Of a DNA stretch of 64,000 bases, positions 8,389-63,921 are shown piece after piece. Both the position numbers and the translations under genes were made by a program. The notes beneath the pieces were generated by a model. That model worked only from the letters and a program-made list of their open reading frames with translations, was not told the DNA's origin and made no database searches. The DNA is taken from positions 3,180,935 to 3,244,934 of the forward strand of contig NZ_CP192010.1 in assembly GCF_050947935.1 (NCBI RefSeq), written 5' to 3'. This DNA is from Dactylosporangium sp. CA-052675. Its GTDB lineage: Bacteria > Actinomycetota > Actinomycetes > Mycobacteriales > Micromonosporaceae. Position 1 is the first letter of the stretch, and the number at the start of each line of letters is the position of its first letter.

Positions 8389-8403
8389 GAGGATGGCTCC
8401 CGA

Positions 8404-33038: not shown

Positions 33039-33078
33039 AAGAGCTCCTGTGTCCGGGGGTGGGTCCAGTTGGAGCGGG

Positions 33079-33654
33079 TCAGTTCGGGGTGGATCCGTCC
33101 GGGGTGGATCCGTTCGGGGCGGGGACGACCCAGAAGAACTCGCCGTCCCGGTCGTATTCGTAGATCACCGCGGGGCTGCCCGCGGCAAAGCTGTCGGCGC
33201 CGGTCTGGCGGACCTGGACGATCGCGCTGGAGCCGTCGTCGGCGGTGACCTCGGCCTGACCGAACGACTCGGTCACGGTCCCGGTGCGAATCACGCACGA
33301 CCGCCCGACGAACGCGGTGCGGGAGTCGCCGCCCGTCGCCGGGGTGAGCCGCCGCAGCGGGATCGCGGCCAGCCGCGCCGCGAGCCACCCGGCCGCCAGC
33401 GCGACCAGCAGCACGGCCACGCGCGGCAGGGCGCCGCGGACGACGGCCGAGCCGGCCAGGCTGACGAACCAGGCGACCGGCACGAGCACCGAGAGCCCGA
33501 CCGCGATCGGCGCCCCGAGCAGCCCGGCCCCGGCGTCGAGCAGGTCGGTGTCGGCGCCCCCGAGGAGCACGACGAGCCAGTACGCGATGACGACGGCGAG
33601 CAGGACGGTGAACAGGACGGTCGGGAAGCCGAGGATCGCGTCGAGAAACTCCAT
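33079..33654 (-). CDS. NfeD-like membrane protein (YqiJ/YuaF-type, C-terminal OB-fold)
   Basis: There are three TM helices and a beta-rich C-terminus. It lies 41 bp upstream of the flotillin gene. Confidence 0.6.
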   Translation of the reverse strand: MEFLDAILGFPTVLFTVLLAVVIAYWLVVLLGGADTDLLDAGAGLLGAPIAVGLSVLVPVAWFVSLAGSAVVRGALPRVAVLLVALAAGWLAARLAAIPLRRLTPATGGDSRTAFVGRSCVIRTGTVTESFGQAEVTADDGSSAIVQVRQTGADSFAAGSPAVIYEYDRDGEFFWVVPAPNGSTPDGSTPN

Positions 33655-33836: not shown

Positions 33837-33989
33837 TTATCGACATCTGGACGGAAGTCCCCTAGCGTGTCGTGGCATATCGACGGTCGTCGGTTCCGCC
33901 AGTGCCGACGAACGCCCCGATGACCCGTGCCCGTCTTCGGCGAGCGCGCGCGGGAGTCCGTGACCGGCTCCTACCCCTTGGAGCGTTCC

Positions 33990-39681: not shown

Positions 39682-41145
39682 ATGAGCCTGCTCAAACGTC
39701 TGCCGCGCGGTCGCACCCTCGGGGTGGCCGGCGCCGTCGGGGCCCTCGTGGCCGGCGGCCTGATCCTGGCGCCGATGGTCAACGCGTCCGCCGCGTCGGG
39801 CTGCCGCGTCGCCTACACCACCAACCAGTGGCCCGGTGGCTTCACCGCGAACATCGCGATCACCAACCTCGGCGACCCGATCAGCGCGTGGACCCTCGGC
39901 TGGACGTTCGGCGACGCCGGGCAGAAGGTCGGCCAGGGGTGGTCGGCGACGTACACGCAGAGTGGTACCGCCGTCACCGCCAAGAGTCTGGACTACAACG
40001 GCAACCTCGGCACCGGCGGCTCGACGAGCATCGGGTTCAACGGGACGTGGACGGGCGCCAACCCGAATCCGGCCACGTTCACGCTCAACGGTGTCGCCTG
40101 CACCGGCACGGTCGGCACGCCGTCGCCGACGACCGCCTCGCCGAGCCCGTCCAGGAGCGTGAGCCCCAGCCCGAGCCGCAGCACCACGCCGCCTCCGCCG
40201 CAGGGGACCACGCCGCTGGCCATCAACGGGCAGTTGCACGTGTGCGGCGTGAATCTGTGCAACCAGTACAACAAGGCCATCCAGCTGCGCGGCATGAGCA
40301 CGCACGGCATCCAGTGGTTCGCGTCGTGCCTCAACAACGCCTCGCTGGACGTGCTCGCCAACGACTGGAAGGCCGATCTGCTGCGCATCGCCATGTACGT
40401 GCAGGAGCAGGGCTACGAGACGAACCCGTCGGGCTTCACCGCGCAGGTGAACAACTACGTGGACATGGCCGAGGCGCGCGGCATGTACGCGATCATCGAC
40501 TTCCACACGCTGACCCCCGGTGACCCGAACTACAACCTGGACCGGGCCAAGACCTTCTTCGCCTCCGTCGCCCAGCGCAACGCGAACAAGAAGAACGTCA
40601 TCTACGAGATCGCCAACGAGCCCAACGGCGTGAGCTGGCAGGGCATCAAGAGCTACGCCGAGACGGTCATCCCGGTCATCCGCGCGGCCGACCCGGACGC
40701 GGTCGTGATCGTGGGCACCCGCGGCTGGTCGTCGCTGGGCGTCTCCGACGGCTCGAACGAGTCCGAGATCGTGAACAACCCGGTGAACGCGACGAACATC
40801 ATGTACACGTTCCACTTCTACGCGGCCTCGCACAAGGACGACTACCGCGCGGTCGTGGCGCGGGCGGCCCGCTCGCTGCCGCTGTTCGTGACCGAGTTCG
40901 GCAGCGTCACCTACACCGGCGGCGGCACGGTCGACCTCGCGAGCACCGGCACCTGGCTGGACCTGCTCGACCAGAACAAGATCAGCTACGCGAACTGGAC
41001 GTACTCGGACGCGAACGAGAGCAGCGCGGCGTTCAAGTCCGGCACGTGCGCGGCGGGCTCGTACGCGAACGCGAACTCGCTGAGCGAGTCCGGCACGTAC
41101 CTGCGCAACCGCATCCGCACCGCGGACAACTTCCCGACGAGCTGA
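39682..41145 (+). CDS. secreted endoglucanase: CBM2 + Pro/Ser/Thr linker + GH5 catalytic domain
   Basis: There is a signal peptide. The CBM2 has conserved W and C residues (CRVAYTTNQWPGGF...NGVAC). GH5 motifs are present: NEP (acid/base) and TEFG (nucleophile). Confidence 0.8.
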   Translation: MSLLKRLPRGRTLGVAGAVGALVAGGLILAPMVNASAASGCRVAYTTNQWPGGFTANIAITNLGDPISAWTLGWTFGDAGQKVGQGWSATYTQSGTAVTAKSLDYNGNLGTGGSTSIGFNGTWTGANPNPATFTLNGVACTGTVGTPSPTTASPSPSRSVSPSPSRSTTPPPPQGTTPLAINGQLHVCGVNLCNQYNKAIQLRGMSTHGIQWFASCLNNASLDVLANDWKADLLRIAMYVQEQGYETNPSGFTAQVNNYVDMAEARGMYAIIDFHTLTPGDPNYNLDRAKTFFASVAQRNANKKNVIYEIANEPNGVSWQGIKSYAETVIPVIRAADPDAVVIVGTRGWSSLGVSDGSNESEIVNNPVNATNIMYTFHFYAASHKDDYRAVVARAARSLPLFVTEFGSVTYTGGGTVDLASTGTWLDLLDQNKISYANWTYSDANESSAAFKSGTCAAGSYANANSLSESGTYLRNRIRTADNFPTS

Positions 41146-44720: not shown

Positions 44721-44878
44721 CGGTCGGGGCCGGGCCGCCTTCCTGCCCGTGGGCTGTCCCACCCCGCGCGGAGGCCGAAGTCGGCCCCGGCGGAACCGGC
44801 GGTCGCCGGCGCACGACCGCAGCGACCGATTTGCCGGTTTTAGTCGCATTAGTGGCGACCGGGGCCGACAATCGACGG

Positions 44879-46159
44879 GTGGAGCAACTGGATAGTGGTG
44901 GCGGTACGACCGCGCATGTCGGGCGGCAGCCGATCTACGACCGGGAAGGGGCCGTTGTCGCCTACGAGCTGTTGTTTCGGGCCGGCACCGATGCTTTGAG
45001 CGCTGCGCGCACGGACGATCACGCGACCGCGCGTGTTCTTGTCGCGGCGTTCACCGAGTTCGGTCTCGAAGAGCTTACCGGCGGCAAGGTGTGCTTCCTC
45101 AACGTCACCAAGTCGTTCCTGACCGGGATGCTGCCGCTGCCGTTCGACTACAGCCAGGCCGTGCTCGAAGTGCTCGCCAGCGTCGAGGTCGACGAACAGC
45201 TCGTGGCCGGGCTGACGGTGTTGTCCGAACGTGGTTTTACGCTCGCGATCGATCACTTCGTGTGCGGCGGGCCCCGCGAGGTACTGCTGCCGCTGGTCAG
45301 CTACGTGAAGGTCGACATGCTCGCGGCCGACGAGGCCGGGGTGCGCGCGTGTGTGGAGCTCTGCCGGCGGTACCCCCACCTGCAGCTCGTCGCGGTGCGC
45401 CTCGAAAGCACGGAGTCGCTGCGGCTCGCCTTCGAGCTCGGGTTCGACCTGTTCCAGGGGCACATTCTCGGCCGGCCGCATGTCGACACGACCTCGGCGC
45501 TCGCGCCGGGCAGGCTCGCGCGGCTGCGGCTGCTCGCCGCGCTCACGGCGGACGACGTGGACCTCGACGAGGTCGTGGCGCTCGTCGGCCAGGATGCCGG
45601 GTTGAGCATGCGCGTGTTGCGCGCGACGAACGCGGCCACGTTCGGACTGAAACGGACGGTCACATCGGTGCGCGAGGCGATCGTCGCGATGGGCCTGAAC
45701 CGGCTGCGTCAATGGGTCACGCTGATGCTCGTCTCCGACCTCACCACCGCCGACCACGAACAACTCGCGCGCATCCTGGTCCGGGCACGGCTGTGCCAGC
45801 TGCTCGTGGACTCGCCCGAGTTCGCGGGCGCCGCGGGGCAGGGCGATGCGGCGTACCTGGGCGGTTTGCTCTCGGCCGTCGCCGACCACTTCGCGGTCCC
45901 GGTCGACGAGATCGTCGCCGGCCTGCCGCTGGGCCCGGAACTGGGCGGGGCGCTGCGCGCGGGGGACGGCCCGCTGGGCGCGATCCTGCACGCGGCGCGC
46001 GCCTACACCGACCCGGACCCGGACAACGACCACGGCGAGCCGGGCGCGATCGTCGCCGCATACCTCTCCGCCCTGCGCTGGACCAACGGCGTCCTCGGGG
46101 AGCTGAGCCAGGAGATCCCCGACCGCGCCGAGGAGCGCCTGCACGCCCTCGCCGGCTGA
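44879..46159 (+). CDS. EAL-domain (c-di-GMP phosphodiesterase-type) + HDOD-domain protein
   Basis: An RQPIYD start motif is present. EAL-domain acidic residues appear in the DHFVCG and KVDM contexts. The C-terminal HDOD helical domain is present. Confidence 0.65.
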   Translation: MEQLDSGGGTTAHVGRQPIYDREGAVVAYELLFRAGTDALSAARTDDHATARVLVAAFTEFGLEELTGGKVCFLNVTKSFLTGMLPLPFDYSQAVLEVLASVEVDEQLVAGLTVLSERGFTLAIDHFVCGGPREVLLPLVSYVKVDMLAADEAGVRACVELCRRYPHLQLVAVRLESTESLRLAFELGFDLFQGHILGRPHVDTTSALAPGRLARLRLLAALTADDVDLDEVVALVGQDAGLSMRVLRATNAATFGLKRTVTSVREAIVAMGLNRLRQWVTLMLVSDLTTADHEQLARILVRARLCQLLVDSPEFAGAAGQGDAAYLGGLLSAVADHFAVPVDEIVAGLPLGPELGGALRAGDGPLGAILHAARAYTDPDPDNDHGEPGAIVAAYLSALRWTNGVLGELSQEIPDRAEERLHALAG

Positions 46160-49035: not shown

Positions 49036-49269
49036 AGGGCGGCGCCGTCGTCCGCGGATGCGGCACCGCGATCGCGGCCACCGCCAGCACGGCGAGGCCG
49101 GCAGGACCCGCCACCGGCGATGCCGACCCGAATCCGGGCGAGACCCGCGGGCGGACCAGGACCAGCAGCGCCGCCGGGACGCTTCGCGGTGCCGGAAACG
49201 CTACAGACCGGCCCCGGCGCGCCGATCAGCCGGAAGGACGAGATCCTTTCGCACAGAACGGGCAGGCCG

Positions 49270-49806
49270 GTGAGTGTCACCCATACCGCCACCGAGGACG
49301 CGGAGCACCCCGGCGGACTCGAGGCCGGGCGATACCTGACGTTCACGCTGCACGGCGAGGCGTACGCGCTGGACATCTTCCACGTCATCGAGATCATCGA
49401 GTATCGGACGCTGACCGCGGTGCCGATGGCGCCGGACTTCGTGCGCGGGGTGATCAACCTGCGCGGGCGGGCGGTGCCCGTCGTCGACCTGGGCATCCGG
49501 TTCGGCCAGGGTGCCACGGCCGTTGCCCGGCGCACCAGCATCATCATCGTGCGCAGCGGTGACGCCGGCGGCACCGACGGCCAGGACGTCGGGATCCTCG
49601 TCGACATGGTGAACAAGGTCGTCGGGTTCGGCCCCGGCGACGTCGAGCCGCCGCCGACGTTCGGCACGGGCATCCAGCCCGAGTTCATCAGCGGCATGGC
49701 CCGCCGCGAGCACGACTTCATCATCGTGCTCGACCTGGAGCGGGTCCTGTCGCCGGCCGAGTTCGCCGCGCTGTCCCGGGCCGGCCGCGAGGACGACGGC
49801 CCGTGA
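49270..49806 (+). CDS. cheW: chemotaxis coupling protein CheW
   Basis: The CheW domain is YLTFTLHGEAYALDIFHVIEII...GVINLRGRAVPVVDL. The start is uncertain: GTG 49270 or ATG 49120. Confidence 0.7.
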   Translation: MSVTHTATEDAEHPGGLEAGRYLTFTLHGEAYALDIFHVIEIIEYRTLTAVPMAPDFVRGVINLRGRAVPVVDLGIRFGQGATAVARRTSIIIVRSGDAGGTDGQDVGILVDMVNKVVGFGPGDVEPPPTFGTGIQPEFISGMARREHDFIIVLDLERVLSPAEFAALSRAGREDDGP

Positions 49807-50636
49807 CCGGGTCGCTGGAGGCGCCACCGGAGATCACCGGCGCCGACTTCGCCGCGATCAGTGCGCTCCTGCAGCAGCGGACCGGCATCCGGCTCCAGCC
49901 GGGCAAGGAGACGCTCGTCATGGGGCGGCTCAGCCGGCGGCTGCGGCAGCTTGGGGTCGGCGGCTACGACGAGTACGTCCGGCTGCTGCACGCCCCCGAC
50001 GGCCGCGAGCTGCGCCAGGCGATCGACCTGCTCACGACCAACGAGACGTCGTTCTTCCGCGAGCCGCAGCACTTCGACTACCTGCGCGACGTGATCGTGC
50101 CCGCGCACCGGCCGGGGCGCATGTTCCGGCTGTGGAGCGCGGCCAGCTCCAGCGGCGAAGAGGCGTACACGGCCGCGATGGTCCTGCTGGAGCGGCCCCC
50201 GGCCGGCGGCTGGGAGATCCTCGGCACCGACATCTCGACCCGGATCGTGACCGGGGCGCGCCGCGGGCTCTACCCGCTGGAGTCGGCCGGGCGGATCCCG
50301 CCGGAGCTGCTGCGCCGGTACTGGCTCAAGGGCCGCGACGAGTACGCCGGGCTGATGGCGGCCGGCTCGACACTGCGGGAGCGGGTCGCGTTCCGGCACG
50401 CCAACCTGCTCGACGACCTGAGCGACCTGGGCCTGTTCGACGTCATCATGCTGCGCAACGTCATGATCTACTTCGACCAGCCGACGAAGGTGGCGCTGGT
50501 CGCGCGACTGCAGAAGATGCTGTACCCCGAGGGTCACCTCATCGTGAGCCTGTCCGAGACGCTCAACGGCATCCCGTCGCGGCTGCGGATGATCCGCCCG
50601 TCGATCTACCGGCTCCCGGCGGGCACGCGTGACTGA
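49803..50636 (+). CDS. cheR: chemotaxis protein methyltransferase CheR
   Basis: GTG overlaps the cheW stop (GTGA). There is an SAM-MTase fold and the N-terminal CheR helical domain. Confidence 0.85.
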   Translation: MTGSLEAPPEITGADFAAISALLQQRTGIRLQPGKETLVMGRLSRRLRQLGVGGYDEYVRLLHAPDGRELRQAIDLLTTNETSFFREPQHFDYLRDVIVPAHRPGRMFRLWSAASSSGEEAYTAAMVLLERPPAGGWEILGTDISTRIVTGARRGLYPLESAGRIPPELLRRYWLKGRDEYAGLMAAGSTLRERVAFRHANLLDDLSDLGLFDVIMLRNVMIYFDQPTKVALVARLQKMLYPEGHLIVSLSETLNGIPSRLRMIRPSIYRLPAGTRD

Positions 50637-51099
50637 CGACGTGTTCCTGTACCCGGGCGGGTTCCACTTCGCGTGCGCCGGAACCCGCATCTCGACGCTG
50701 CTGGGCTCGTGCGTGGCCGTCTGCCTGTGGCATCCGCGGCGGCGCATCGGCGGTATGTGCCACTTCATGCTGCCCAGCCGCCACCGTGGCCCGGGCACGC
50801 CGGGCGACGGCCGCTACGCCGACGGGGCGTTCGAGCTGTTCCTGCGGGAGCTGGCGCGGACCGGGACGAGGCCCGCGCAGTACCGGACGAAGATCTTCGG
50901 CGGCGGCGCGCAGCTGACCGAGGGCGAGGTCGCCGGCGCCAACGTGGCGGCCGGGCTGGCGCTGCTGGACCGGCACGGCTTCGCGGCCCCGACGGGGGAC
51001 GTCGGCGGCGGCGGGGCGCGGTTCCTGCGCTTCGACCTGGCCACCGGGGACGTGTGGGTGCGCCGCAACGAGCGCTTCGAGCTGGACGTGGCGTCGTGA
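50629..51099 (+). CDS. cheD: chemoreceptor glutamine deamidase CheD
   Basis: The motif [10 protein letters not shown] carries the catalytic cysteine. The start overlaps the cheR stop. Confidence 0.8.
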
Positions 51100-52124
51100 G
51101 CATCCGCACGCTCATCGTGGACGACTCGGCCGTCGTGCGCCAGGTGCTGTCGGCCGTGCTCGGCGCGGCGCCGGGCATCGAGGTCATCGGCGCGGCCGGC
51201 GACCCGCTGCGCGCCATGACCCTGATGCAGCGCAGCTGGCCGGACGTGATCGTGACGGACATCGAGATGCCGGGCATGGACGGCCTGGCGTTCGTCAAGC
51301 AGGTGATGTCGATCCGGCCGACGCCGATCGTGGTGTGCTCCTCGCTCGTCGGCCCGGGCGCGCGGGCCGGGCTGGAGGCGCTCGCCGCGGGCGCGGTCGC
51401 CGCCGTCGCCAAGCCGGCGAGCGGGCTGAAACGGTACCTCCAGGACGACAGCGGCCACATCGTGCCGGCCGTGCGCGCCGCGGCGGCGGCCACGGCGCGG
51501 CGCCCGCAGCGTCCGGCGGCCCGTCTGGCGGAACCGGCGCGCACGCCCGGCCGCGGGGAGCGGCGGGTCGTGGCCATCGGCACGTCGACCGGCGGCACCC
51601 AGGCGCTCGAACGCGTCCTCACCGCGCTGCCGGCCCGCCCGCCGGCCGTCGTCGTCGTGCAGCACATGCCGGAGAAGTTCACGGCCGCGTTCGCCGAACG
51701 GATGAACGCGCTGTGCGCGGTCGAGGTGCGCGAGGCCGCCGACGGCGACCGGGCCCGCGACGGCCTGGTGCTCGTCGCGCCCGGCGGCCGGCACCTGGAG
51801 TTGCTGAGCGACCCGCTGGCCGGCTACCGGGTGCGGGTCTTCGACGGCCCGCCGGTCAACCGGCACCGCCCGTCCGTCGACGTGCTGTTCCGCTCGGTGG
51901 CCAGGGCGGCGGGCCCGGACGCGCTGGGCGTGATCATGACCGGCATGGGCGACGACGGTGCCCGCGGCCTGCTGGAGATGCGCCGCGCCGGTGCCGCGAC
52001 CGTCGCCCAGGACGAGGCCACGTGTGTCGTGCACGGCATGCCGAAGGAGGCCGTGGCGATCGGCGCCGTCGAGCGCGAGGTACCGCTTCCCGCGATTGCT
52101 GAGGTGATCCGTAACCATGGCTGA
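51096..52124 (+). CDS. cheB: chemotaxis response regulator protein-glutamate methylesterase CheB
   Basis: The N-terminal REC domain carries the DIEMPGMDG phospho-acceptor region. The C-terminal methylesterase has GTSTGG. Confidence 0.85.
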
Positions 52125-53148
52125 GGTCTGGTACGTCATTGTGGCCCTGCTGGTGGGCCTGGGGATCGGCTTCGCGGCCGGCCGGCGCCGCCCGGCACCG
52201 CCGCCGTCGCCCGGCACGGCTCCGGACGCGTTCCGCCGCGGCGTGGGCGAGTTCGCCGAGGCGGTGGCGCCGGTGTGGTCGGCCCAGATCGAGTCGTCGC
52301 GGGCGCAGATGGAGTCCGGGATCGGCGCCGTCACCCAGCAGTTCAGCCAGATCGTCGACAACGTCGACGCGGTCCTGGCCTCCTCGGCCGACGCGCTCGG
52401 CCCGCACGGCGGCGGCGCGGCGTCCTTCGACCGCGGCCGGGAGCGCCTCGGCAACGTCGTGCACACCCTGGACAACGCGATGCGGGCCAAGCGCCAGGCC
52501 GTGCACGATCTGGCCGGGCTCGCCGGGTTCAACGACGAGCTCAAGCGGATGACCGCGGACGTGGCCCAGATCGCCGCCCAGACGAACCTGCTGGCCCTCA
52601 ACGCCTCGATCGAGGCGGCCCGGGTCGGCGCGGCCGGCGCCGGCTTCGGCGTCGTGGCGCTGGAGGTCCGGCGGCTGGCCGACCGGTCGCTGCAGACGTC
52701 GGAGCAGATGGCCGAGAAGGTCGGCGGCATCGGCTCGGCCATCGCGGGGGTCCTGGCCGGCGCGGAGGGCGACGCGGAGCGCGAGAGCGTCGCGGTGGCC
52801 CGGGCCAACGACGACGTCCAGGAGGTCATCGACGACCTGCAGCAGGTCGTCGATCGGTCGCGGGAGTCCTCGCAGCGGCTGGAGCGGGCGGCGGTCGAGA
52901 TCCGCTCGTCGATCTCCGACGCGATGGTGAGCCTGCAGTTCCAGGACCGGGTCGGCCAGGTGCTGCAGCACCTGGAGGACAACATCAAGAGCCTTCCCCG
53001 CCACGTCGCCGAGGCTCCGGACGCCGGGCCGCAGGCGCAGAAGCTCCTGTCCGAACTCGAGCGTACGTACACCATGCAGGGGGAGCTGCAGGCGCACCGA
53101 ACCGGTGCGGCGATCGAGGCTCCCACCTCAGAGATCACGTTCTTCTAG
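52117..53148 (+). CDS. short methyl-accepting-chemotaxis-like protein: one N-terminal TM helix + MCP signalling domain, no ligand-binding or HAMP domain
   Basis: The highly conserved tip motif [34 protein letters not shown] is present. Confidence 0.65.
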
Positions 53149-53161
53149 AAAGGCGGCACGC

Positions 53162-53530
53162 ATGTCCAAGACCGTTCTGATCGTCGATGACTCGGCCTCG
53201 GTACGACAGGTCGTCACGATCGCGCTGAAGGGCGCCGGTTACGAGGTCATCGATGCCGTCGACGGCCAGGACGCGCTGCGCAAGCTCGCCGGCAAGCGGG
53301 TCCACCTGATCATCTCGGACGTCAACATGCCCAACATGGACGGCATCACCCTGGTCGGCGAGGTCCGCAAGCAGCCCGACCACCGGTTCACGCCGATCAT
53401 CATGCTGACCACCGAGTCGCAGGAGGAGAAGAAGCGGCAGGCGCAGGCGGCCGGGGCGAAGGCGTGGGTCACCAAGCCGTTCCAGCCGGCGCAGATGCTC
53501 GCCGCCGTGTCGAAGCTGATCGCTCCGTGA
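53162..53530 (+). CDS. cheY: CheY-like single-domain response regulator
   Basis: REC residues are present: DD, D in ISDVNMPNMDG, T in MLTT, K in KPF. Confidence 0.8.
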   Translation: MSKTVLIVDDSASVRQVVTIALKGAGYEVIDAVDGQDALRKLAGKRVHLIISDVNMPNMDGITLVGEVRKQPDHRFTPIIMLTTESQEEKKRQAQAAGAKAWVTKPFQPAQMLAAVSKLIAP

Positions 53531-53814
53531 CCGGCCCGGTGCCGGCCCGGCTGGAGATCGAGGGCGAGCTGACCATCATCTCGGCGGCCGAGCACCACGA
53601 GCGGCTGCTGCGCTTCCTCACCGGCGGCCCGGACCTGGAGATCGGGCTGGCGGGCGTGATCGAGCTGGACACCGCCGGGCTGCAGGTGCTGCTGATGGCC
53701 CGGCGCGAGGCGCGGCGGCGGGAACTGCGGCTGCGGCTGAGCGATCACAGCCCGGCCGTGCGCGATGTGCTGGCGCTGGCGTGGCTGACCCCGGACCTGG
53801 AGGCGGTGGTATGA
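53527..53814 (+). CDS. STAS-domain protein (anti-sigma-factor-antagonist-like)
   Basis: GTG overlaps the cheY stop. The pattern LEIEGELTI...LDLAGVIELDTAGLQVLL is typical of SpoIIAA-like STAS. Confidence 0.55.
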   Translation: MTGPVPARLEIEGELTIISAAEHHERLLRFLTGGPDLEIGLAGVIELDTAGLQVLLMARREARRRELRLRLSDHSPAVRDVLALAWLTPDLEAVV

Positions 53815-55985
53815 ACGACGACGACTTCCGCGATGCCCTGGACACGTTCCTCACCGAGGCCCGCGAGCTGGTACAGGACTTCGAGGAGGGGCTGCTGGAG
53901 CTCGAGTCCGCGCCCGACGGGCCGGAGGCGGTCCGGGCATTGTTCCGCGCGATGCACACGCTGAAGGGCTCCGCCGGGCTGTTCGGGCTGCACCACCTGG
54001 TGTCCTTCACGCACGTGCTCGAGTCGGTCCTCGACGAGCTGCGCGAGGGCCGGCTGCAGGTCAGCGCCGGGCTGGTGAGCGCGCTGCTGCCCTGCGCGGA
54101 CCACATCACCGCCCTGGTCGACGGGGTCGCCGAGGGCCGGCAGGAGCCGACCGCGGCCGAGCAGGAGGCGAGCGCGCGGCTGCTCGCCGGGCTGGCGCCG
54201 TACCAGGCCGGCGCCGTGTCGCCGCCGCATCCGGCCCCGGCCCCGTCCTCCGGGCCGCGCACCTGGCTGCTGAGCATCTGGTTCGGGCCGGACTGCCTGC
54301 GCAACGGGATGGATCCGCTGTCGTTCGTGCGGTACCTCGCCCGAATGGGTACCGTCACCCGCCTGGCGACCCGCACCGACGCCCTGCCACGGGCCGACGA
54401 GGCCGACCCCGAGGTGTGCTACCTCGGCTTCGACCTGGAGTTCACGAGCGACGCGTCGAAGGCCGACATCGAGAGCGTCTTCGAGTTCGTCCGCGACGAC
54501 AGCACGATCCGCATCCTGCCCTCTGACGAGGCCGCCGAGGTCATCGCGGCTCTGGAGGAGGAGGACCGGCTCGGTGACCTGCTGCGCCGCGGTGGGGTCG
54601 TCACCGACCGGGAGCTGGCCGAGGCGCTGGCCAAGCAGCACGCGGGGGAGTCGGCGGGCCGCCCGCTCGGCGAGATCCTGGTCGAGGAGCAGATCGTCCA
54701 GCGGCCGGTGGTCGAGGCGGCGCTGAGCAAGCAGCGCAAGACCGCCGAGAGCCGGGTGCAGGACACCCAGACGATCCGGGTGTTCGCCTCCCGGCTGGAC
54801 CGGCTCATCGACCTCGTCGGGGAGCTGGTGATCGCCCAGTCCGGGGTCGCGCTGGTCGACGGGCACTCCGAGGAGCAGGCGCACGTACTGCGGCTGGTCG
54901 AGGAGGTCCGCCACACCGCCCTGTCGCTGCGGATGGTGCCGATCGGCACCACGCTGCGCCGCTTCGAGCGGGTGGTCCGCGACGTGTGCGTCGAGCTCGG
55001 TAAGGACGTCGACCTGGTGATCACCGGCGGCGACGCGGAGATGGACAAGGCGCTCGTGGAGCGCATCGGCGACCCGCTGACGCACCTGGTCCGCAACGCC
55101 CTCGACCACGGCATCGAGACCCGCGAGGAGCGCGAGCGGCTCGGCAAGCCGCCCCGGGGCCGGCTGGCGCTCAACGCGTCGCACGACGCCGGCAGCATCG
55201 TCATCGAGATCTCCGACGACGGCCGCGGGCTGGACCGCGAGCGCATCCTCGCCAAGGCCGTGGAGCGGGGCCTGGTCGCGCGCGGCGACACGCTGAGCGA
55301 CCAGGAGGTCTACGCCCTCATCTTCGAGCCGGGCTTCTCCACCGCCGAGACCGTGTCCAACCTCTCCGGCCGCGGCGTCGGCATGGACGTCGTCCGCGGC
55401 GCCGTCACCGCGCTGCGCGGCAGCATCGACGTGCAGACCACCCCCGGCGCCGGCACGGTGATGCAGATCCGGCTGCCGCTGACCCTCGCGATCATCGACG
55501 GGTTCCTGGTCTGCGTCGGCGACACGTACTTCATCGTCCCGCTGGACCGGGTCGTGGAGTGCGTGGAACTGCCGGCCGGGGCGAGCGGGCGGCAGTTCAT
55601 GGACCTGCGTGAGCAGGCGCTGCCGTTCGTACGGCTGCGTGAGGTGTTCGGCCTCGGCGGGCAGCCGCCGCGCCGGCAGAGCGTCGTCGTCGTCGAGCAC
55701 GCCGGGCAGCGCGCCGGGCTCGTCGTCGACCAGCTCCTCGGCCAGTCGCAGACGGTCATCAAGCCGCTCGGCAAGCTCTTCCAGGATGTGCGGTGCGTCG
55801 GCGGGTCGACGATCCTCGGCAACGGCAGCATCGCGCTGATCCTCGACATCGACGCGCTGGTCTCGCAGTACATCGCGCGCGACCGGCGCGCTCAGAACCG
55901 GTCGAACTTGCTCTCGTCGATGGGGGACATGTCCTCGGCCGAGCGGCTCGCCCCGGCCGGGACCAGCGCGGGCGCCGGGCGCTGA
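53811..55985 (+). CDS. cheA: chemotaxis histidine kinase CheA
   Basis: ATG overlaps the STAS stop (ATGA). The HPt domain has [12 protein letters not shown]. Downstream are the dimerisation domain, HATPase_c (GRGVGMDVV) and the CheW-like domain. Confidence 0.85.
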
Positions 55986-57583
55986 GCCCGGCCGTTGCCG
56001 CCGCCGGTGCGGTGCGCGCCGCGCTCGTAGGAGGCGGGCAGGGCCGGGGGCCGCCCCGCCCGGTTCTGGTCGGTGACGAAGAACGTCATCATGTCCTGCA
56101 GCTGGTGGGTCTGCGCCGCCATCTGCTCGGCGGTGGCGGCCAGCTCCTCGCTGGACGACGCGGTCTGCTCGGTGACCTTCCCGATCTGGGTCATGGCGAT
56201 GTTGATCTGGCGCACGCCGGTGGCCTGCTCGCTGCTGGCCGCCGCGATCTCCTGCACCAGGTCGGACGTGCGGGTGATGCTCGGGATGATCTCGCTGAGC
56301 AGGCTGCCGGCCCGCTCGGCGGTCTGCACGCTGCCGGCCGCGAGCTGGCTGATCTCCTGCGCGGCGATCTGGCTGCGCTCGGCGAGCTTGCCGACCTCGG
56401 TGGCCACCACCGCGAAGCCCTTGCCGTGTTCGCCGGCCCGTGCCGCCTCGATCGTGGCGTTGAGCGCCAGCATGTTGGTCTGGAACGCGATGTCGTCGAT
56501 GATGCTGATCTTGCTGGTGATCTGCTTCATCGCGTCGACGGTGCGCTGCACCGCGTCGCCGCCCTGGTCGGCCTCGGTCGCGGCCTGCGTGGCGATGCTC
56601 TCGGTGGTGGTGGCGTTCTCGCTGTTCTGGCTGATGCTGGCGGTCATCTGCTCCATGCTGGCGGTGGTCTCCTCGACGCTGGCCGCCTGCTCGGTCGCGG
56701 CCTGCGACAGGCTCTGCGACGCGCCGCTGATCTGGTTGGAGGCGTTGGCGAGCTGGTGTGTGGAGTCGATGACCGTGCGGACCGTCTCGGAGAGGCGGTC
56801 CAGGGCGCTGTTGAGGGCGGTACCCATCCGGCCGACCTCGTCCTGGCTGTTGACCGCCAGACGCTGGTCGAGCCGGCCCTGCGCGAGCCCGGTGAGCACG
56901 GCGACGGTCTCGCGCAGCGGGCGGGACACGGCCCGGACCACCATCGTCACCATGCCGAACGTGATGACGATGGCGACCAGGGTCAGCGCGAGCAGCAGCA
57001 GCCGGGCGGTGCCGTAGTCGCGCTTGGACTCGTCCAGCGCGGCCTGCGCCGCGGCGTTCTGCCGCTCGACCAGGCTGCCGATTGCCGTGGACAGGCGCTG
57101 CGCGATCGGGTCGACCTCCTCGCGGCTGATCCGGTTGTACTCCGTGTAGTTGTTCGCCCGCGCGGCCGGGATCGACTTGCCGTTGAGCACCTTCTGGTAC
57201 TCCGACCAGGCCGCCTCGAACGCGGCGCGGTCCGCCTTGGAGGCCGTGTCGGTGTTCTTGCCCGCGTACGCCTGCCAGCTCTGGTTGAGCCCGGCGACCG
57301 CGTCGGTGATCTTCTGCTCGGCGGCCGCGGTCTCGGCGTCGCCCTGGGCCAGGGCCAGGCCGCGGACCTGGAAGCGGACCTGCAGATAGTCCCCGGCGAC
57401 GTCGTCGAGGATCTGCACGGACTGCAGGTTGCGGTGGTACAGCGCGTTGAGGCGGTCCTGGCTGCCGCCGAGGTAGAACAGCCCGATCAGGCCGACCGCG
57501 GCCAGCAGGGCGCACACCACGATGGCGACGATGCGGAGCTTCCACGCGACGGACACGTTGCGGAATGCGGACCCGATACTCAC
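55892..57583 (-). CDS. methyl-accepting chemotaxis protein (periplasmic 4HB-type sensor, HAMP, MCP signalling domain)
   Basis: GTG at 57583 with GGGGGGAG. There are two TM helices. The tip motif [25 protein letters not shown] is present. The 3' end overlaps cheA by 94 bp. Confidence 0.8.
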
Positions 57584-57778
57584 AGCTGCTGCTCCCCCCG
57601 GACGGCGCACTTCAACCACATCAATCGGACCCGGGCCACTTCACCTGAGCGTTCTGCCGCCGAGTCATGGGCGGGGGATCGGTTGCGAGCGTGCGACCGG
57701 GTGCGGCAACGACGCGCGCCCATCCTCGGCTGCCTCGTCCGGCGGACCTGCGGTCCGTCGTTCAGCCGGATCCGTCGC

Positions 57779-59150
57779 TCAGCCGGAACGGGGTGCGGCC
57801 GCTGCTGCGTCGGTGCGGGCGATCGGGATGGTGGCCAGCAGCGATGTGCCGGCGCCGGGCGGGCTGGTGATGGTCAGCCGCCCGCCGAGGGTCTCGACGC
57901 GGTCGCGCAGGCCGGTGAGCCCGGATCCGCGGGCAGGGTCGGCGCCGCCGATGCCGTCGTCGTGGATGGCGAGGCGGAGGGTGTCGGCGTCGGTGGTCAC
58001 GGTGATCTGGACGACGGAGGCGTGTGCGTGTCTGGCCGCGTTCGTCAATGATTCGGACACGAGGTAGTACGCGGCGGTCTCGATCGTCGAGGACAGCCGG
58101 CGGTCGGTGTCGACGTGCATCTCGACGGGGGTCGCCGATCTGCGGGCGAGCGCCCTGAGCGCCGGTTTGAGGCCGCCGGTGGCCAGCACCGACGGGTGGA
58201 TGCCCCGGGCGAGCTCTCGCAGATCCGCTATGACCTCGTTGAGGCTCGCCACCGCATGGACGATCTCCGAGCGCATCTGCTCGGGTGCGGTGCCGGTGCC
58301 GGCCGCCTGGGCCGCGCGCAGTTCGAGGCCGATCGCGATGAGGTGTTGCTGGGCGCCGTCGTGCAGGTCGCGTTCGATGCGCTGGCGTGCCTCGTCGGCC
58401 GCGGCGGCGATACGGGCGCGGGATGCGATGAGCTGGGCCCGGTTGTCCGCGTTGGTGAGCGCGGCCTGCAGCAGCGACGACAGCGGTGGGACGACCCGCT
58501 GGCGCAGCCGCTGTACGTGTCGCTCGGGCGTCCCGGCGGGCACGTGCAGGGTCCCGAGCAGGGTGTTGCCGTGCCGCAGGGGGAAGGCCAACGATTGCCC
58601 ATCCGGTTGGGCCGATCCGCGATCTATCGCCGCCGGGTGCGTCGGCTCGCAGGTCGATCGTCGCGGCCGGCAGGTCGAGCGCATGCGCGATGTGCCGGCC
58701 CGCCGCCCGCAGGGCCGCGGTGAGGTCATCGGTGTTCAGCAGCAGCTGTGCCAGGTCCGCGGTGAGGTCGGACTCCTGGGCCCGCGCGGCGCGCAGCCGG
58801 GACAGGTCGGCCAGCGTGCCACTCGCCAGCGCGACGATGACGAACACGGCAAGCTGCACGACGTCGCGGACGTCGGAGTCGACCAGGTTCCCGATCGGAT
58901 GGACGTAGAACACGGTGAACAGCAGGACGCTTGCCAGCGCCGTCGCGATCCCCAGCCACAGCCCCCAGACGATCGAGACCGCCACGACGCCGAGCAGGTA
59001 GACCACGCTTGGCGACGACTGCTTCGTGAACGTCTCGATCGGATCGACGAGCACTGTCTCGGCCGCGAGGATGAGCGCGGCGACCGCGATCCCCAGCCAC
59101 CGCGACGGAGGCTCCGGCCGTACCAGCACTGACAGGAGACCAGCCCGCAT
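57779..59150 (-). pseudogene. sensor histidine kinase (DUF4118 membrane domain, GAF-like region, HisKA_3 + HATPase_c) split into two frames by an apparent single-base frameshift near 58600-58730
   Basis: The N-terminal frame (59150->) carries the DUF4118-like 4-TM region. The C-terminal frame (->57779) carries the DLHDGAQQHL H-box and the HATPase domain. The two frames overlap across about 130 nt. Confidence 0.5.
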
Positions 59151-59385: not shown

Positions 59386-61072
59386 CGGCTAGCCTCGGTC
59401 TTTCGTTATCAGTCGATCATGGCGGCCGGGAGCGGCTTTTTGATCTTTGCTCAGGTTGGTGGGCCGCGTGGGCGTGCTGAAATTCCGGCGCGTTGGCCGG
59501 TTTCCTCCGTGGGTGTCGACGCGATCGGGTGCGGGTGTCAGCCGGTTGGGCGTGGGAGCCCGTTGAGTCGGGTGAACGCGGTGGCTAGATCTGTTGCCCA
59601 TGGCCAGGTTTCGGCGATTCGGAGCCGGGTTTGGCGGGCGGTGTGGGTGATGCGTGCGGCGACGTGCAGGAGTCGGTAGCGCAGCTTCTTCGGTTCGGCG
59701 GTCGCGAGGGCCCCGTTGAGGAGGAGCATCTGGGTCCAGGCGAGCAGGTCGATGCCGGTGAGGGCGAGTTGCAGCCAGGCCTGGTTGATGGCGAAGACGC
59801 GGGACGGGAACCGGCCGAAGCCGGTGTCCTTGCCGGTGCGGATGCGGTCCTCGACGCGGGCGTGGCCGCGGTGGCGGGCCTCGAGGAACTGGGTGCTGCC
59901 GTTGCCGGGTGGGGTGTCGGTGGCGAACACCTGATGGCGGAGGCCTTCGACGGTGTCGAACAGCGACAGTTGCGCGCCGGGGTGCGGCTCTTCGCGACGG
60001 ACGATGAACCGGGTGCCGGGTGGGTAGCCGTCGTCTGGGACGAGGCCGGTCAGTTCGCAGATGTCGGCGCCGTCGCGGGGTTCACCGTCGCCGTCGAGGG
60101 CCGGCACCCATGGCAGGTGCTGTTTGGCGGTGAGGATGGCCTGGCGGATCGGTTCGGTGATCGCGACGCCGACGGAGAACCGGGCGTCGACTCCCTGTTT
60201 GCGGAGGCTGCGGATGTGGGTGAGCAGGCCGTGGGTGCAGCCGGCGGAGTCCGATCGGATCAGGATCGGGGTGCCGTGGCGCATGTGGTCGGGGATCTGG
60301 GTGAGGGCGTCGTCCAGGACGGTGATGTGATCGGCGGTGGTGTTCGACCCGGCCCGGCCCTCACGTAATAGCCCGGACAGCGCTTCGCGGGTGTTGTCCA
60401 GGAAGCAGAACAGCGGGTGGTAGCCGAAATTCTTCTTCCAGGTCGGGGTTGCTGCTTCTTTCTCGGAGTGGCAGATCACGATGGAGGCGTCCAGGTCGAG
60501 GGTCAGGCCCGGGATGGGCAGGCCGGCGGCCGTGGTCTGCGGCAGCCCGCCGTGTGTGTCGATCCGTTGTGCCCACGCGATGTCGCGTGCTTGCGCTCGC
60601 GCAGCGGCCAGCCGGCGCAGTACCGCGCTGTCCATGATGGACAACAGTCGCCACGCGGTCGGGTCCGACGCGACGGGCCCGAACAACGCCGCCTGGTCTC
60701 GGATTACGGCCAGGTCCGAGATCGTTTCGCCGCCGTCGGCGAGCGTCACCGCCAGGTCGACCGCGATCCGGCCCGGGTCGTGGCCGCCGCGACGCTGCCG
60801 CAACCCGGCGAGGGCATCACTGCACGCGCCGGTCAGACCGGTCACATCGGCGATGTCGGTGAGCAGGCGCGCACCGGCATGACCGACGACGCCACGACCG
60901 TCGGCGGACACCACAATCCTCGGACGCGTTCCGGTACGCTTCACCATGCAGGTGCCCTCCGGGCGGGATGGACAAGGACCCTCGACAAGTCCTATCTTCC
61001 CAGCTCAGACGGCACCTGTTCCCATTCGAACCAGCATGTGGGCAGCCCTTAACGAATGACCCGGGCTAGGCT
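59386..61072 (-). mobile_element. IS1380-family insertion sequence (~1.69 kb) with imperfect terminal inverted repeats (left GGCTAGCCTCGGTCTTTCGTTA; right, reverse-complemented, GCCTAGCCCGGGTCATTCGTTA)
   Basis: A single DDE transposase ORF is flanked by IR-like ends. I could not identify a target-site duplication with confidence. Confidence 0.55.
59538..60947 (-). CDS. IS1380-family DDE transposase
   Basis: The 469-aa protein has the N-terminal pattern VKRTGTRPRIVVSADGRGVVGHAGARLL typical of actinobacterial IS1380-family transposases. Confidence 0.7.
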   Translation of the reverse strand: MVKRTGTRPRIVVSADGRGVVGHAGARLLTDIADVTGLTGACSDALAGLRQRRGGHDPGRIAVDLAVTLADGGETISDLAVIRDQAALFGPVASDPTAWRLLSIMDSAVLRRLAAARAQARDIAWAQRIDTHGGLPQTTAAGLPIPGLTLDLDASIVICHSEKEAATPTWKKNFGYHPLFCFLDNTREALSGLLREGRAGSNTTADHITVLDDALTQIPDHMRHGTPILIRSDSAGCTHGLLTHIRSLRKQGVDARFSVGVAITEPIRQAILTAKQHLPWVPALDGDGEPRDGADICELTGLVPDDGYPPGTRFIVRREEPHPGAQLSLFDTVEGLRHQVFATDTPPGNGSTQFLEARHRGHARVEDRIRTGKDTGFGRFPSRVFAINQAWLQLALTGIDLLAWTQMLLLNGALATAEPKKLRYRLLHVAARITHTARQTRLRIAETWPWATDLATAFTRLNGLPRPTG

Positions 61073-61282: not shown

Positions 61283-61585
61283 ATGAAACTCACGCCCAGG
61301 GAAATCGACAAGCTGACGGTGCTCACGCTGGCCCAGATCGCTCAGGCCCGCCGGGCGAAGGGGCTGAAGCTCAACCATCCCGAAGCCGTGGCGGTGATCT
61401 GCGCGGCGGCGCTGGAGGGTGCCCGGGAGGGCAAGACGGTCGAGGACGTGCTGACCGACGCGCGGTCGGTGTTGAGCAAGGCCGACGTGATGGAGGGCGT
61501 CGCCGACCTGGTCCCGTTCGTCCAGGTCGAGGCGGTCTTCACCGACGGCAGCCGGCTGGTCACGGTACACACCCCGATCCAGTAG
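61283..61585 (+). CDS. ureA: urease gamma subunit
   Basis: The sequence [39 protein letters not shown] is canonical for UreA. Confidence 0.85.
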
Positions 61586-61663
61586 CGGCACAGCGGACGG
61601 GAATTGACGGCCGCCGGGAACGGGCGGCAGGCCAGGAACGGACAGTAGGAACGGAGGGCCAGA

Positions 61664-62206
61664 ATGCCGAATCCCGAACACAAGGACAGCAGTCACAAGT
61701 CGATCCGGCCGATCGGCGGCTACGTGCTCGCGGAGGACCCGGTGGAGCTCAACGCCGGCCGGCCGGTCTCGACGCTCGAGGTCGTCAATACGGGGGACCG
61801 GCCCGTTCAGGTCGGTTCGCACTACCACTTCTACGAGGTCAATCGCTGCCTCGAGTTCGACCGTGACGCCGCGTTCGGGCGGCGGCTGGACATTCCGGCG
61901 ACCACCGCCGTGCGCTTCGAGCCGGGCGACAAGAAGACCGTGGACCTCGTGCCGTTCGGCGGCAAGCAGCGGGTGTCCGGGTTCAACGGGCTGGTGGACG
62001 GCTGGGCCGGCACCGGCGATGCCGTCGGATATCAGCCCGAGCGGGCCGCGGCGGCGGCCCGGGCCACCATGCGCGGCTTCAAGTCCCGGCCCGCCGCGGA
62101 GTCCCAGAAGAAGGAACCCCAGTCCCGGCCCGCAGCGGAGTCTCAGAAGAAGGAACCCCAGTCCCGGCCCGCCGCGGAGTCCCAGAAGAAGGAACCCCAG
62201 GAGTGA
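61664..62206 (+). CDS. ureB: urease beta subunit with an unusual C-terminal extension carrying 3 tandem copies of [13 protein letters not shown]
   Basis: The UreB core is [15 protein letters not shown]...[12 protein letters not shown] 39-bp repeat is present three times at 62085-62201. Confidence 0.8.
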
Positions 62207-63921
62207 GCCGCATATCCCGGAGCCAGTACGCCGACCTGTACGGTCCGACGCTCGGCGACAAGATCCGGCTGGGCAACACCGACTTGTATGTCGAGATCGA
62301 ACGGGACCTGCGGGTCCTGGGCGACGAGGCCGTCTACGGCGGCGGCAAGACCCTGCGCGACGGCATGGGCATCGACAGCGGGCTGTCCAGCGCCGGCGGC
62401 GCGCTCGATCTCGTCATCACCAACGTCACGATCGTCGATGCGGTGATGGGGGTCGTCAAGGCGGACGTCGGGGTCAAGGACGGCCGCATCGTCGGCGCCG
62501 GCAAGGCGGGCAACCCCAGCACGATGGACGGCGTCACGCCGGACCTGGCCGTGGGCCCGGGCACCGAGGCGATCTCCGGCGAGCACCTCATCCTGACCGC
62601 GGCCGGCATCGACGCGCACGTGCACTACATCTCGCCGCAGCAGGTGTACGACGCGCTCAGCAACGGCATCACCACCCTGTGGGGCGGCGGCGTCGGCCCG
62701 ACGGACGGCACCAACGGCACCACGATCTCCCCGGGGGTGTGGAACCTGCACACCATGATGCGGGCCGTCGAGGATCTCCCGATCAACTTCGGGTTCCTGG
62801 GGAAGGGAAGCTGCTCCTCGCGCGGCCCGCTCGACGAGCAGATCATCGCCGGCGCGGCCGGGCTCAAGATCCACGAGGACTGGGGCGCGACGCCCGCTGT
62901 GATCCGGGCCGCGCTGCGCGCCGCCGACGACTTCGACGTCCAGATCAGCCTGCACACGGACACGCTCAACGAGAGCGGATACGTCGAGGACACCATCGCG
63001 GCGTTCGAGGGCCGCACGATCCACACCTTCCACACCGAGGGCGCGGGCGGCGGGCACGCGCCGGACATCATCAAGGTCGCGGGTCAGCGCAACGTCCTGC
63101 CGAGCTCGACGAACCCGACGCTGCCGTACGGGGTCAACTCCCAGTCCGAGCTGTTCGACATGATCATGTTCTGTCACAATCTCAACCCGCGGATCCCCTC
63201 GGACGTCGCGTTCGCCGAGAGCCGGGTCCGGCCCGAGACGATGGCCGCCGAGAACGTCCTGCACGACCTCGGCGCCATCTCGATGATCTCCAGCGACAGC
63301 CAGGCGATGGGGCGGGTGGGCGAGAGCTTCCTGCGCGCTGTCCAGCTCGCGCAGGCCATGAAGGAAGCCCGGGGCAAGCTCGAGGAGGACTCGCCCGACA
63401 ACGACAACTTCCGCGTCCTGCGGTACCTCGCGAAGGTGACCATCAACCCGGCCATCACCCAGGGCGTGGCCCACGTGCTGGGCTCGATCGAGCCGGGCAA
63501 GCTCGCCGACCTCGTGCTGTGGGAGCCGGCCTTCTTCGGCGCCAAACCGAAGCTGGTCCTCAAGGGCGGCATCGTCAGCTGGGCGGCCGCCGGCAGCTCG
63601 GACGCGTCGCTGCCGCTGACCGAGCCCGTCATCTACAAGCCGATGTTCGGGGCGACCGGCTCGGCGCTGTCGCAGAGCTGCGTGACGTTCGTGTCGCGGG
63701 CCGGCCACGAGGCCGGCGTCGCCGCCAAGCTCGGCCTGCGGCGGCAGGTCATGCCGGTGCAGGGCACGCGCTCGCTGACCAAGCGGGACATGGTGCGCAA
63801 CGACCTCACTCCGCGGATCGACGTGGACCCGGAGACCTTCGCCGTCAAGGTCGACGGCGTGCATGCCACCGTGCCGCCGGCCTCGTCGCTGTCCATGAAC
63901 CAGTTGTACTTCTTCAGCTGA
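62203..63921 (+). CDS. ureC: urease alpha subunit
   Basis: The GTG start overlaps the ureB stop. Canonical motifs are present: the nickel-ligand residues in GIDAHVHY, the carbamylated-lysine region, and MVCHNL-type flap residues (MFCHNL). Confidence 0.9.

Follow-up and report, generated by a model that had tools for sequence, protein, structure and literature searches.

A conserved chemosensory operon of Dactylosporangium with a predicted c-di-GMP-binding CheA, an embedded STAS gene and a short receptor carrying a CheZ-like motif

The chemosensory operon

A stretch of 64,000 nucleotides from Dactylosporangium sp. CA-052675 (RefSeq assembly GCF_050947935.1, contig NZ_CP192010.1, positions 3,180,935 to 3,244,934 of the forward strand), hereafter called the window, contains a complete operon for a chemosensory (Che) pathway. 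The base composition of the window is 72% G+C. A combination of frame analysis by G+C content at the third codon position (GC3), Pfam and NCBIfam was used for gene calling and gave eight co-directional genes on the plus strand in the order cheW-cheR-cheD-cheB-shortMCP-cheY-STAS-cheA, with a convergent gene for a full-length methyl-accepting chemotaxis protein (MCP) after cheA. Details of the genes and features are presented in Table 1. An earlier interpretation of this DNA, made from the letters and their reading frames and referred to here as the sequence-only reading, had described a complete Che operon with an embedded STAS gene and a convergent MCP. The family matches and the gene junctions bear this out, and the operon is real.

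The sequence-only reading also had all genes chained by overlaps of 4-8 nt. This holds for the cheW/cheR and cheD/cheB junctions (4 nt each), for the cheR/cheD and cheB/short MCP junctions (8 nt each) and for the cheY/STAS and STAS/cheA junctions (4 nt each), the last two leaving STAS translationally coupled to both of its neighbours. It does not hold between the short MCP gene and cheY, where a 13-nt gap forms the sole non-overlapping junction of the operon. At their 3' ends, cheA and the gene of the convergent MCP overlap by 94 nt (55892-55985). Opposite the pentapeptide-bearing tail of the MCP, the DNA encodes a C-terminal CheA tail that is specific to Dactylosporangium, and this antisense overlap may account for the apparent conservation of the CheA tail within the genus.

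The start of cheW was earlier placed at ATG 49120, which is probably too early. Downstream of 49270 the GC3 is 0.95 and the G+C content at the second codon position (GC2) is 0.46, as compared to 0.76 and 0.72, respectively, in 49120-49269. Since the coding GC3 signature begins at GTG 49270, this codon is most likely the start. Orthologues of cheW in actinomycete loci are 56-92% identical. The catalytic residues of CheY are all present, and in its sequence the position of Y106 is taken by another aromatic residue, W101. No flagellar genes are present among the 47 window gene products that were scanned, in agreement with the sequence-only reading. Its statement that cheZ, cheC and cheX are absent is correct at the level of family models, with the reservation that the short MCP gives a weak CheZ match at a CheZ-like motif.

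Table 1. Genes and features of the chemosensory cluster in the window, and a regulatory gene pair found next to related clusters
Feature	Coordinates	Strand	Details
cheW	49270..49806	+	178 aa from GTG 49270; Pfam CheW 2.3e-35
cheR methyltransferase	49803..50636	+	Pfam CheR_N + CheR
cheD deamidase	50629..51099	+	Pfam CheD 1.2e-16; NCBIfam PRK13498 7e-48
cheB methylesterase (REC + CheB_methylest)	51096..52124	+	NCBIfam PRK00742, 407 bits, above cut-off
Short MCP (sMCP), 343 aa	52117..53148	+	Pfam: MCPsignal only
CheZ-like motif QFQDRVGQ, sMCP residues 274-281	52936..52959	+	Near membrane-proximal end of C-arm helix
sMCP extreme C-terminus EITFF	53131..53145	+	Consensus [ED]-I-[TS]-F-F-COOH; stop codon always next
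cheY, single-domain response regulator, 122 aa	53162..53530	+	Pfam Response_reg 3.8e-28
STAS-only protein, 95 aa	53527..53814	+	Pfam STAS_2 3.7e-16, STAS 2.3e-10
cheA, 724 aa, P1 - P2-like - MshEN_N - P3 - P4 - P5	53811..55985	+
P2-like beta-alpha-beta-beta-alpha-beta domain of CheA	54261..54530	+	About residues 151-240
MshEN_N-type c-di-GMP-binding module of CheA (predicted)	54567..54734	+	Residues 253-308; two tandem 24-residue motifs
Full-length receptor 4HB-HAMP-MCPsignal	55892..57619	-	Pfam; class 34H
MASE3 kinase + REC-GerE pair	L042:3984-7341		Equivalents e.g. in L027, L039, L050, L082

A MshEN_N-type module in CheA

CheA of the window has the architecture P1-P2-MshEN_N-P3-P4-P5, in which a MshEN_N-type module is inserted between a P2-like domain and P3. 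The NCBIfam model NF053729 ('c-di-GMP-binding domain, MshE-related'; cut-off 38 bits) matches whole CheA with 39.9 bits and the excised region with 43.0 bits, and 12 of 12 CheA orthologues match it with E<=1e-3. Comparison of a profile of the region with solved structures yielded PilF (4.6e-13), PilB (1e-5) and MshE (1.6e-3). The glycine, leucine and glutamine positions of both MshEN motifs are invariant in 18 sequences that are 55-83% identical to the window CheA. An AlphaFold2 (AF2) model of residues 150-314 (predicted local distance difference test score (pLDDT) of 87.8) displays a beta-alpha-beta-beta-alpha-beta domain and, after it, a helical unit, and the modelled insert superposes on ligand-bound MshEN domains with a root-mean-square deviation of 1.8-2.6 A at 31-32% identity. 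From these similarities, CheA is predicted to be a receptor for cyclic di-GMP (c-di-GMP).

The tandem 24-residue xLGxx(L/I/V)... motifs and the four-helix unit of the CheA insert are shared with the ATPases MshE, PilF and PilB and with NfrB (PMC5013675). In contrast to these proteins, the unit of the window lies inside CheA between P2 and P3, contains a longer spacer and deviates once in each motif. The relaxed form of the motif has been published as [RKPN]hGxxhhxx[GAS]hhxxxxhxxxhxx[QNKRYWST], and 12 Actinoplanes-type loci contain it twice. As an architecture, the MshEN-bearing CheA is not new. It was catalogued in 2016, when the same domain order was listed for Aeromonas veronii CheA under 'Actinobacteria, Proteobacteria' (Wang et al. 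2016, PMC5013675, Suppl. Table 4); no biochemical study of it was found in the literature.

The sequence-only reading had pointed to an EAL/HDOD gene 3 kb upstream of the operon. This gene (44831-46159) encodes an HDOD protein; only a part of the EAL domain is matched, with 27.1 bits at a Pfam cut-off of 31.3. It is not syntenic, with one weak match in 83 loci, and it was rejected as a part of the system. A connection of the pathway to c-di-GMP is plausible through the MshEN module of CheA but not through this neighbour.

A short receptor with a CheZ-like C-terminal module

The sequence-only reading had correctly described the product of the fifth gene as a sensor-less MCP-domain protein but missed a conserved module at its C-terminus. 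No ligand-binding or HAMP domain is recognised by Pfam in this short MCP (sMCP); a transmembrane (TM) helix, present at least in actinomycetes, is all that precedes a complete signalling hairpin of the 34H size with a conserved tip. The MCPsignal match has an E-value of 6e-21, and a family profile aligns with solved MCPs, including Tm1143, over residues 37-270 (about 235 residues; 2.9e-27). The AF2 model (pLDDT 74) starts with a TM helix (residues 2-23) and the hairpin (35-299), after which a pair of short helices leads to a disordered tail. Orthologues are uniformly named 'methyl-accepting chemotaxis protein' in the databases.

The post-hairpin module is kept across phyla and consists of LQFQDRxxQ, H285, Y318-T-M, H327 and a terminal [ED]I[TS]FF. 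Among 35 orthologues that are 28-75% identical, residues Q274, D277, R278, Q281, Y318, F342 and F343 are invariant and I340 is nearly so. The motif is located inside the long C-arm helix of the model, about 18 residues before the helix end, while the EITFF segment is disordered. D-x3-Q is kept also in divergent variants of sMCP which end in KIELF. A co-variation of this tail with CheY was considered: the CheY of two loci whose sMCP ends in KIELF is divergent, but the conserved CheY is also missing from one ITFF locus, so the two may not vary together.

CheZ of E. coli reads MAQDFQD143LTGQ147VI. In hhalign comparisons with E. coli CheZ and with a five-sequence CheZ alignment (E. coli and plasmid-borne genes), FQDxxGQ of sMCP falls on CheZ F141-Q147, so that D277 and Q281 match the catalytic D143 and Q147. 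CheZ is also the most recurrent weak Pfam match of C-terminal sMCP fragments (5 of 22). As the Pfam and hhalign scores are below threshold, the sMCP C-terminus was rejected as a member of the CheZ family, and a resemblance in motif and layout is all that is claimed here.

The layout of CheZ (1KMI) comprises a catalytic helix, a flexible linker and a C-terminal CheY-binding peptide. In both CheZ and sMCP, FQDxxGQ[VI] with its D-x3-Q is present on the C-terminal helix of a hairpin that dimerises to a four-helix bundle, and a flexible linker leads from there to a conserved extreme C-terminal peptide ending in Phe. The two proteins differ in that there is no significant overall similarity, the bundle of sMCP is an MCP signalling domain with a CheA/CheW-binding tip, and the tails read EITFF in sMCP and DSLGF in CheZ; docking of CheY would be a candidate role for EITFF. 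Motif and layout make it a real, though still tentative, possibility that sMCP is an array-resident phosphatase of phosphorylated CheY (CheY-P). Searches of the literature and of database names revealed no description of a receptor-fold phosphatase candidate of this kind.

At 50% identity, the C-terminal module of sMCP defines at least 575 clusters. Among the 150 best of these 575, the module almost always forms the very end of the protein, which is mostly 330-450 amino acids long, and no stand-alone (non-MCP) carriers were found among these 150, short ones being taken as fragments. MCPsignal was detected in 7 of the 8 module carriers that were scanned; the eighth is a partial match of 1,983 amino acids without a Pfam domain. 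In one metagenomic protein of 447 amino acids (P0383), a CheA-P1-like Hpt domain (His in 'HAIHAIKRSAG') is fused to an sMCP with QFQDRVSQ and DITFF, which hints at a functional tie to phosphotransfer. Two other relatives (P0341 and P0379) carry an N-terminal HAMP_2 domain.

The STAS protein

The window STAS protein contains D-T-A-G, which belongs to the motif (E/D)-x-D-T-A-G-(L/V)-Q conserved in 30 orthologues. The residue before the conserved Gly, which corresponds to the phospho-serine of SpoIIAA (Ser58) and RsbV (Ser56), is Ala in at least 90% of these orthologues; the Thr in front of it varies in some sequences. Neither the window nor the annotated loci of Methylomonas and Actinoplanes contain a gene for an RsbW-type kinase, a PP2C phosphatase or a conserved sigma factor. 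The view that STAS is an integral part of a non-canonical Che pathway is upheld by related loci, in 70 of 73 of which it directly precedes cheA; the contrary case raised by the sequence-only reading, that STAS homologues are not conserved in orthologous clusters, fails on the same count.

CheS, a STAS-only product of rhizobial che operons, binds CheA and CheY1 and accelerates signal termination (PMC12654446; PMC8429497). Like CheS of Sinorhizobium meliloti and Agrobacterium, the window protein is small, consists of STAS only and is encoded beside cheY and cheA in a cluster without cheZ. CheS differs in that it is encoded before cheY1 in an F7 alphaproteobacterial operon with a second CheY as phosphate sink, whereas the window has a single CheY. 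By analogy, the window STAS resembles rhizobial CheS and not a partner-switching output.

Conservation and gene order

CheA of the window is 98% identical to that of Dactylosporangium thailandense. Its orthologues are 60-68% identical in Actinoplanes, Couchioplanes, Catenuloplanes, Cryptosporangium, Planomonospora and Virgisporangium and 54-56% identical in Methylomonas and Undibacterium. One genome per species was scanned with the family-specific part of CheA (P2-like domain plus MshEN region), which is encoded in at least 502 species genomes, and gene orders were obtained by tblastn of the window proteins against the 80 best loci of these genomes.

The order cheW-cheR-cheD-cheB-sMCP-cheY-STAS-cheA is present in 29 complete actinomycete loci besides the window and therefore is not a chance arrangement; the receptor at 55892..57619 is syntenic in actinomycete loci. 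In beta- and gamma-Proteobacteria (Thiomonas, Gallionella, Sideroxydans, Rhodoferax, Thauera, Methylotuvimicrobium and others), the order is a circular permutation, sMCP-cheY-STAS-cheA-[MCPs]-cheW-cheR-cheD-cheB. Among the 73 loci with enough upstream DNA, 63 have sMCP, cheY and STAS together before cheA. The arrangement sMCP-cheY-STAS-cheA is a conserved module common to zoosporic actinomycetes and many beta- and gamma-Proteobacteria. A variant of sMCP with QYQDRVSQ is found in two Undibacterium loci (numbered L031 and L033 in our set).

CheY is the most conserved protein of the module, with a median identity of 74% to non-actinomycete orthologues, as compared to 52% for CheA, 45% for STAS and 37% for sMCP, and a range of 37-57% for all proteins other than CheY. 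This suggests that the surface of CheY is constrained by several simultaneous binding partners. Since the base composition of the cluster matches the rest of the window, any transfer of the cluster would be old. One contig deposited under 'Leptospira sp. 96542' (L045; JARJFC010000132.1, 4.7 kb) carries sMCP-cheY-STAS-cheA of the betaproteobacterial type with a CheY 70% identical to that of the window; this is probably assembly contamination.

Receptor class and relation to known clusters

Aligned with E. coli Tar (class 36H), the window MCP is 14 residues shorter, with a gap of seven residues on either side of the hairpin tip (7+7) in symmetrical positions. Giant PAS/poly-HAMP receptors of the Methylomonas cluster have the same gap pattern, and both therefore belong to class 34H. 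The window MCP ends in the pentapeptide KFDRF (55895-55909), and xFxRF tails (KFDRF or QFERF) are present on Actinoplanes and Methylomonas receptors as well. Receptors of class 34H have been tied to the F8 class of chemosensory systems (PMC7184735; PMC11253619). Because its receptors are 34H, the cluster is most likely of class F8; the NCBIfam matches of CheA, CheB and CheR are generic only.

The function of the F8 system of Pseudomonas syringae was earlier called 'a mystery' (PMC5088630), and its kinase was found to be dispensable for chemotaxis and to affect biofilm traits (PMC11253619). Cluster II/che1 of P. syringae pv. tomato shares with the window a 34H receptor with a C-terminal pentapeptide (PMC11253619; PMC5088630) and genes for CheA, CheW, CheY and CheR. 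The P. syringae system is not the driver of chemotaxis and is linked to biofilm and c-di-GMP phenotypes. The papers on it, with which we compare the window by description only, describe no STAS gene, short MCP or MshEN insert.

The F7 stage-1 clusters (Vibrio cholerae cluster III and Methylomicrobium alcaliphilum; Ortega et al. 2020, PMC7184735) also resemble the window type. Both have the order cheY-cheA...cheR-cheD-cheB and STAS ('anti-sigma factor antagonist') genes inside the cluster, and PAS/poly-HAMP receptors are common to F7 stage 1 and the proteobacterial relatives of the window. However, F7 stage-1 clusters have a STAS gene before cheY, a second one that follows together with a serine phosphatase gene, and 36H receptors, whereas the window has a single STAS gene between cheY and cheA, no phosphatase gene and 34H receptors.

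Among zoosporic relatives, Actinoplanes missouriensis has three che clusters, of which cluster-1 adjoins flagellar genes, and deletion of cluster-2 left sporangium formation, dehiscence, flagellation and swimming arrest unaffected (PMC11522434). Cluster-2 (AMIS_68680-68770; PMC11522434) consists of ten genes, as does the orthologous locus of Actinoplanes sp. NBC_00393 (L003), and is separate from the flagellum-linked cluster-1. Judged by gene number and by this other Actinoplanes genome, the window type would correspond, in number and order of its genes, to 'che cluster-2' of Actinoplanes.

Genes around the cluster

Immediately upstream of the module in many beta-Proteobacteria are genes for a MASE3-PAS-PAS-(GAF)-HisKA_3-HATPase kinase and a REC-GerE (NarL-type) regulator (Table 1), a pair which may be a candidate for transcriptional control of the cluster. 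In the window, a HisKA_3/HATPase_c kinase of 301 amino acids without a sensor domain (57779-58684, minus strand) is located next to a DDE_Tnp_1_4 transposase gene (59538-60845, minus strand) and may have been truncated by the insertion sequence (IS) element; in the interval between the two, no response regulator that could be its partner was found. This kinase was considered as a kinase for STAS and rejected: it is a fragment of a NarL-type histidine kinase, it adjoins an IS element, and it does not keep its place in other loci.

Farther away, an operon on the minus strand (26071-33654) encodes a 1631-residue DUF3686 ('ATPase involved in DNA repair')/DUF7902/AAA protein followed by proteins of 691 and 191 amino acids without a Pfam match. 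Genes at 7162-8454, 33927-37352, 39682-41145 and 61283-63921 are typical of a plant-polymer-degrading soil actinomycete and include those for a GH10 xylanase, a PA14/CBM35/CBM6/ricin/3-keto-disaccharide hydrolase protein and a CBM2-GH5 cellulase, as well as a ureABC operon that reaches the window edge.

Proposed mechanism and alternatives

With moderate confidence, we favour the reading that the operon encodes a conserved chemosensory pathway with a c-di-GMP-gated CheA, a CheS-like STAS adaptor and a candidate receptor-fold phosphatase. In this pathway, 34H receptors, CheW and CheA would form arrays in which CheA phosphorylates the single-domain CheY, and the receptors would be adapted by CheR, CheB and CheD tethered via the pentapeptide. 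Binding of c-di-GMP to the MshEN module would alter the kinase output or the P1/P2 delivery, and the second messenger and the chemoreceptor signals would be integrated at the kinase. The sMCP may join the array via its normal hairpin tip, where the CheZ-like D-x3-Q site and the ITFF docking peptide would dephosphorylate CheY-P; phosphatase activity of sMCP, if the proposal holds, would explain the absence of cheZ, cheC and cheX. STAS would be a small accessory that binds CheA and CheY and tunes phosphotransfer like rhizobial CheS, and not an anti-sigma antagonist. A bolder form of the proposal appears doubtful to us, namely that sMCP is a new kind of CheY-P phosphatase which together with a c-di-GMP-receptor CheA and a CheS-like STAS makes up a self-contained kinase/phosphatase/second-messenger-gate array module, spread horizontally between Proteobacteria and zoosporic actinomycetes.

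Several observations weigh against the favoured reading. The module is known from genes alone. Five loci of Undibacterium and Parachitinimonas (L041, L047, L049, L058 and L069) keep cheY-STAS-cheA without an sMCP (QFQD motif) in the fetched flanks. The F8 label rests on the receptor class and not on class hidden Markov models, and STAS genes also occur in stage-1 F7 clusters (PMC7184735). The likeness of STAS to CheS is one of size, STAS-only make-up and a place beside cheY and cheA. For CheA, each MshEN motif of the window deviates once from the relaxed consensus (R at position 7; Q at position 10) and proteobacterial orthologues are without the leading Arg, the first residue, of motif I, which leaves c-di-GMP binding by the window CheA not assured. 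These departures, together with an inter-motif spacer of 8-14 residues as compared to 5 in MshE, are also what would be expected if the insert were a degenerate relic, a helical linker that does not bind c-di-GMP. We consider this rather unlikely, given the residues invariant in both motifs across 18 sequences, the NF053729 match above cut-off, the superposition on ligand-bound domains and the loci in which both motifs match the relaxed form. For sMCP, the similarity to CheZ is below every threshold: the hhalign P-values are 0.01-0.04 over 34-37 columns with a probability of <4% and the motif alone aligned, the Pfam CheZ match (PF04344) has E=0.0024 and 18.2 bits against a cut-off of 30.7, and a C-terminal profile searched against PDB sequences found no CheZ chain. 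In addition, the ordinary 34H MCP of the window has the end of its C-arm at the position of the motif's F, so a part of QFQDRxxQ may be structural. It is conceivable that sMCP, with its normal and complete MCP hairpin, is not catalytic and acts as a structural receptor, an organiser of the array or a sink for methylation, with the motif and ITFF serving bundle packing or the tethering of CheR/CheB; the bundle of the 34H MCP itself ends in 'MMTFF'. Such a role seems to us less probable than not being the case, as D277 and Q281 are invariant at the CheZ-like spacing even in variants with a changed tail, ITFF is unlike the x[FWY]xx[FWY] pentapeptide pattern of the cluster's own receptors and the cluster is otherwise without a phosphatase.

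The remaining alternatives concern the output. According to the sequence-only reading, the pathway may signal through partner switching, with STAS as an anti-sigma-factor antagonist controlling a sigma factor, as proposed for F7 stage-1 systems, in which two genes of this kind are accompanied by one for a serine phosphatase (PMC7184735). The STAS fold, a weak match to the anti-sigma-antagonist model TIGR00377 (32 bits; cut-off 53) and an extracytoplasmic function (ECF) sigma gene 4 kb downstream in one Actinoplanes locus are consistent with such an output. However, Ala stands in place of the phosphorylatable Ser in at least 90% of the orthologues, and an RsbW-like kinase, a PP2C phosphatase and a conserved sigma gene are all missing from the window and the annotated loci. 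Partner switching is therefore unlikely, although partners elsewhere in the genome are conceivable. The start/stop overlaps that wedge STAS between cheY and cheA suggest a stoichiometric partner of both, and taken together these points make control of a sigma factor by STAS very improbable. An ordinary motility pathway, in which CheY-P binds the zoospore flagellar switch and STAS, sMCP and MshEN are modulators without a separate output, has more in its favour. Most actinomycete genera with the cluster form motile spores (Dactylosporangium, Actinoplanes, Couchioplanes, Catenuloplanes, Cryptosporangium, Planomonospora and Virgisporangium), the catalytic residues of CheY are complete with W101 at the Y106 position, and the adaptation set is complete and accompanied by pentapeptide-bearing receptors. 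On the other side, it is a different cluster that adjoins flagellar genes in A. missouriensis (PMC11522434), and the window has none. In P. syringae, whose likeness to the window module is one of class, the F8 kinase is not needed for chemotaxis, the CheY1 mutant swims like wild type and cheY1 falls in a group of cheY genes without a tie to flagellar motility. On balance, we regard the motility pathway as unlikely and prefer the c-di-GMP-gated pathway outlined above.

Implications for F8-type systems

F8-type systems have no assigned mechanism or output, and the classes other than that of E. coli are mostly black boxes. Iron-oxidisers, methanotrophs and zoosporic actinomycetes are among the hosts of the module, which is encoded in at least 502 species genomes. 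Of the zoosporic hosts, Actinoplanes missouriensis is genetically tractable, and a che cluster-2 deletion strain of it exists. The routes by which c-di-GMP is known to reach chemosensory arrays are PilZ adaptors or receptors; if CheA binds c-di-GMP, this sessile/motile second messenger would enter the array directly at the kinase. In E. coli, the phosphatase is placed at the kinase by the binding of CheZ to CheA-short. If sMCP is a phosphatase, it would represent a second, independent way of achieving this placement and would show how clusters with a single CheY and without cheZ, cheC and cheX terminate their signals.

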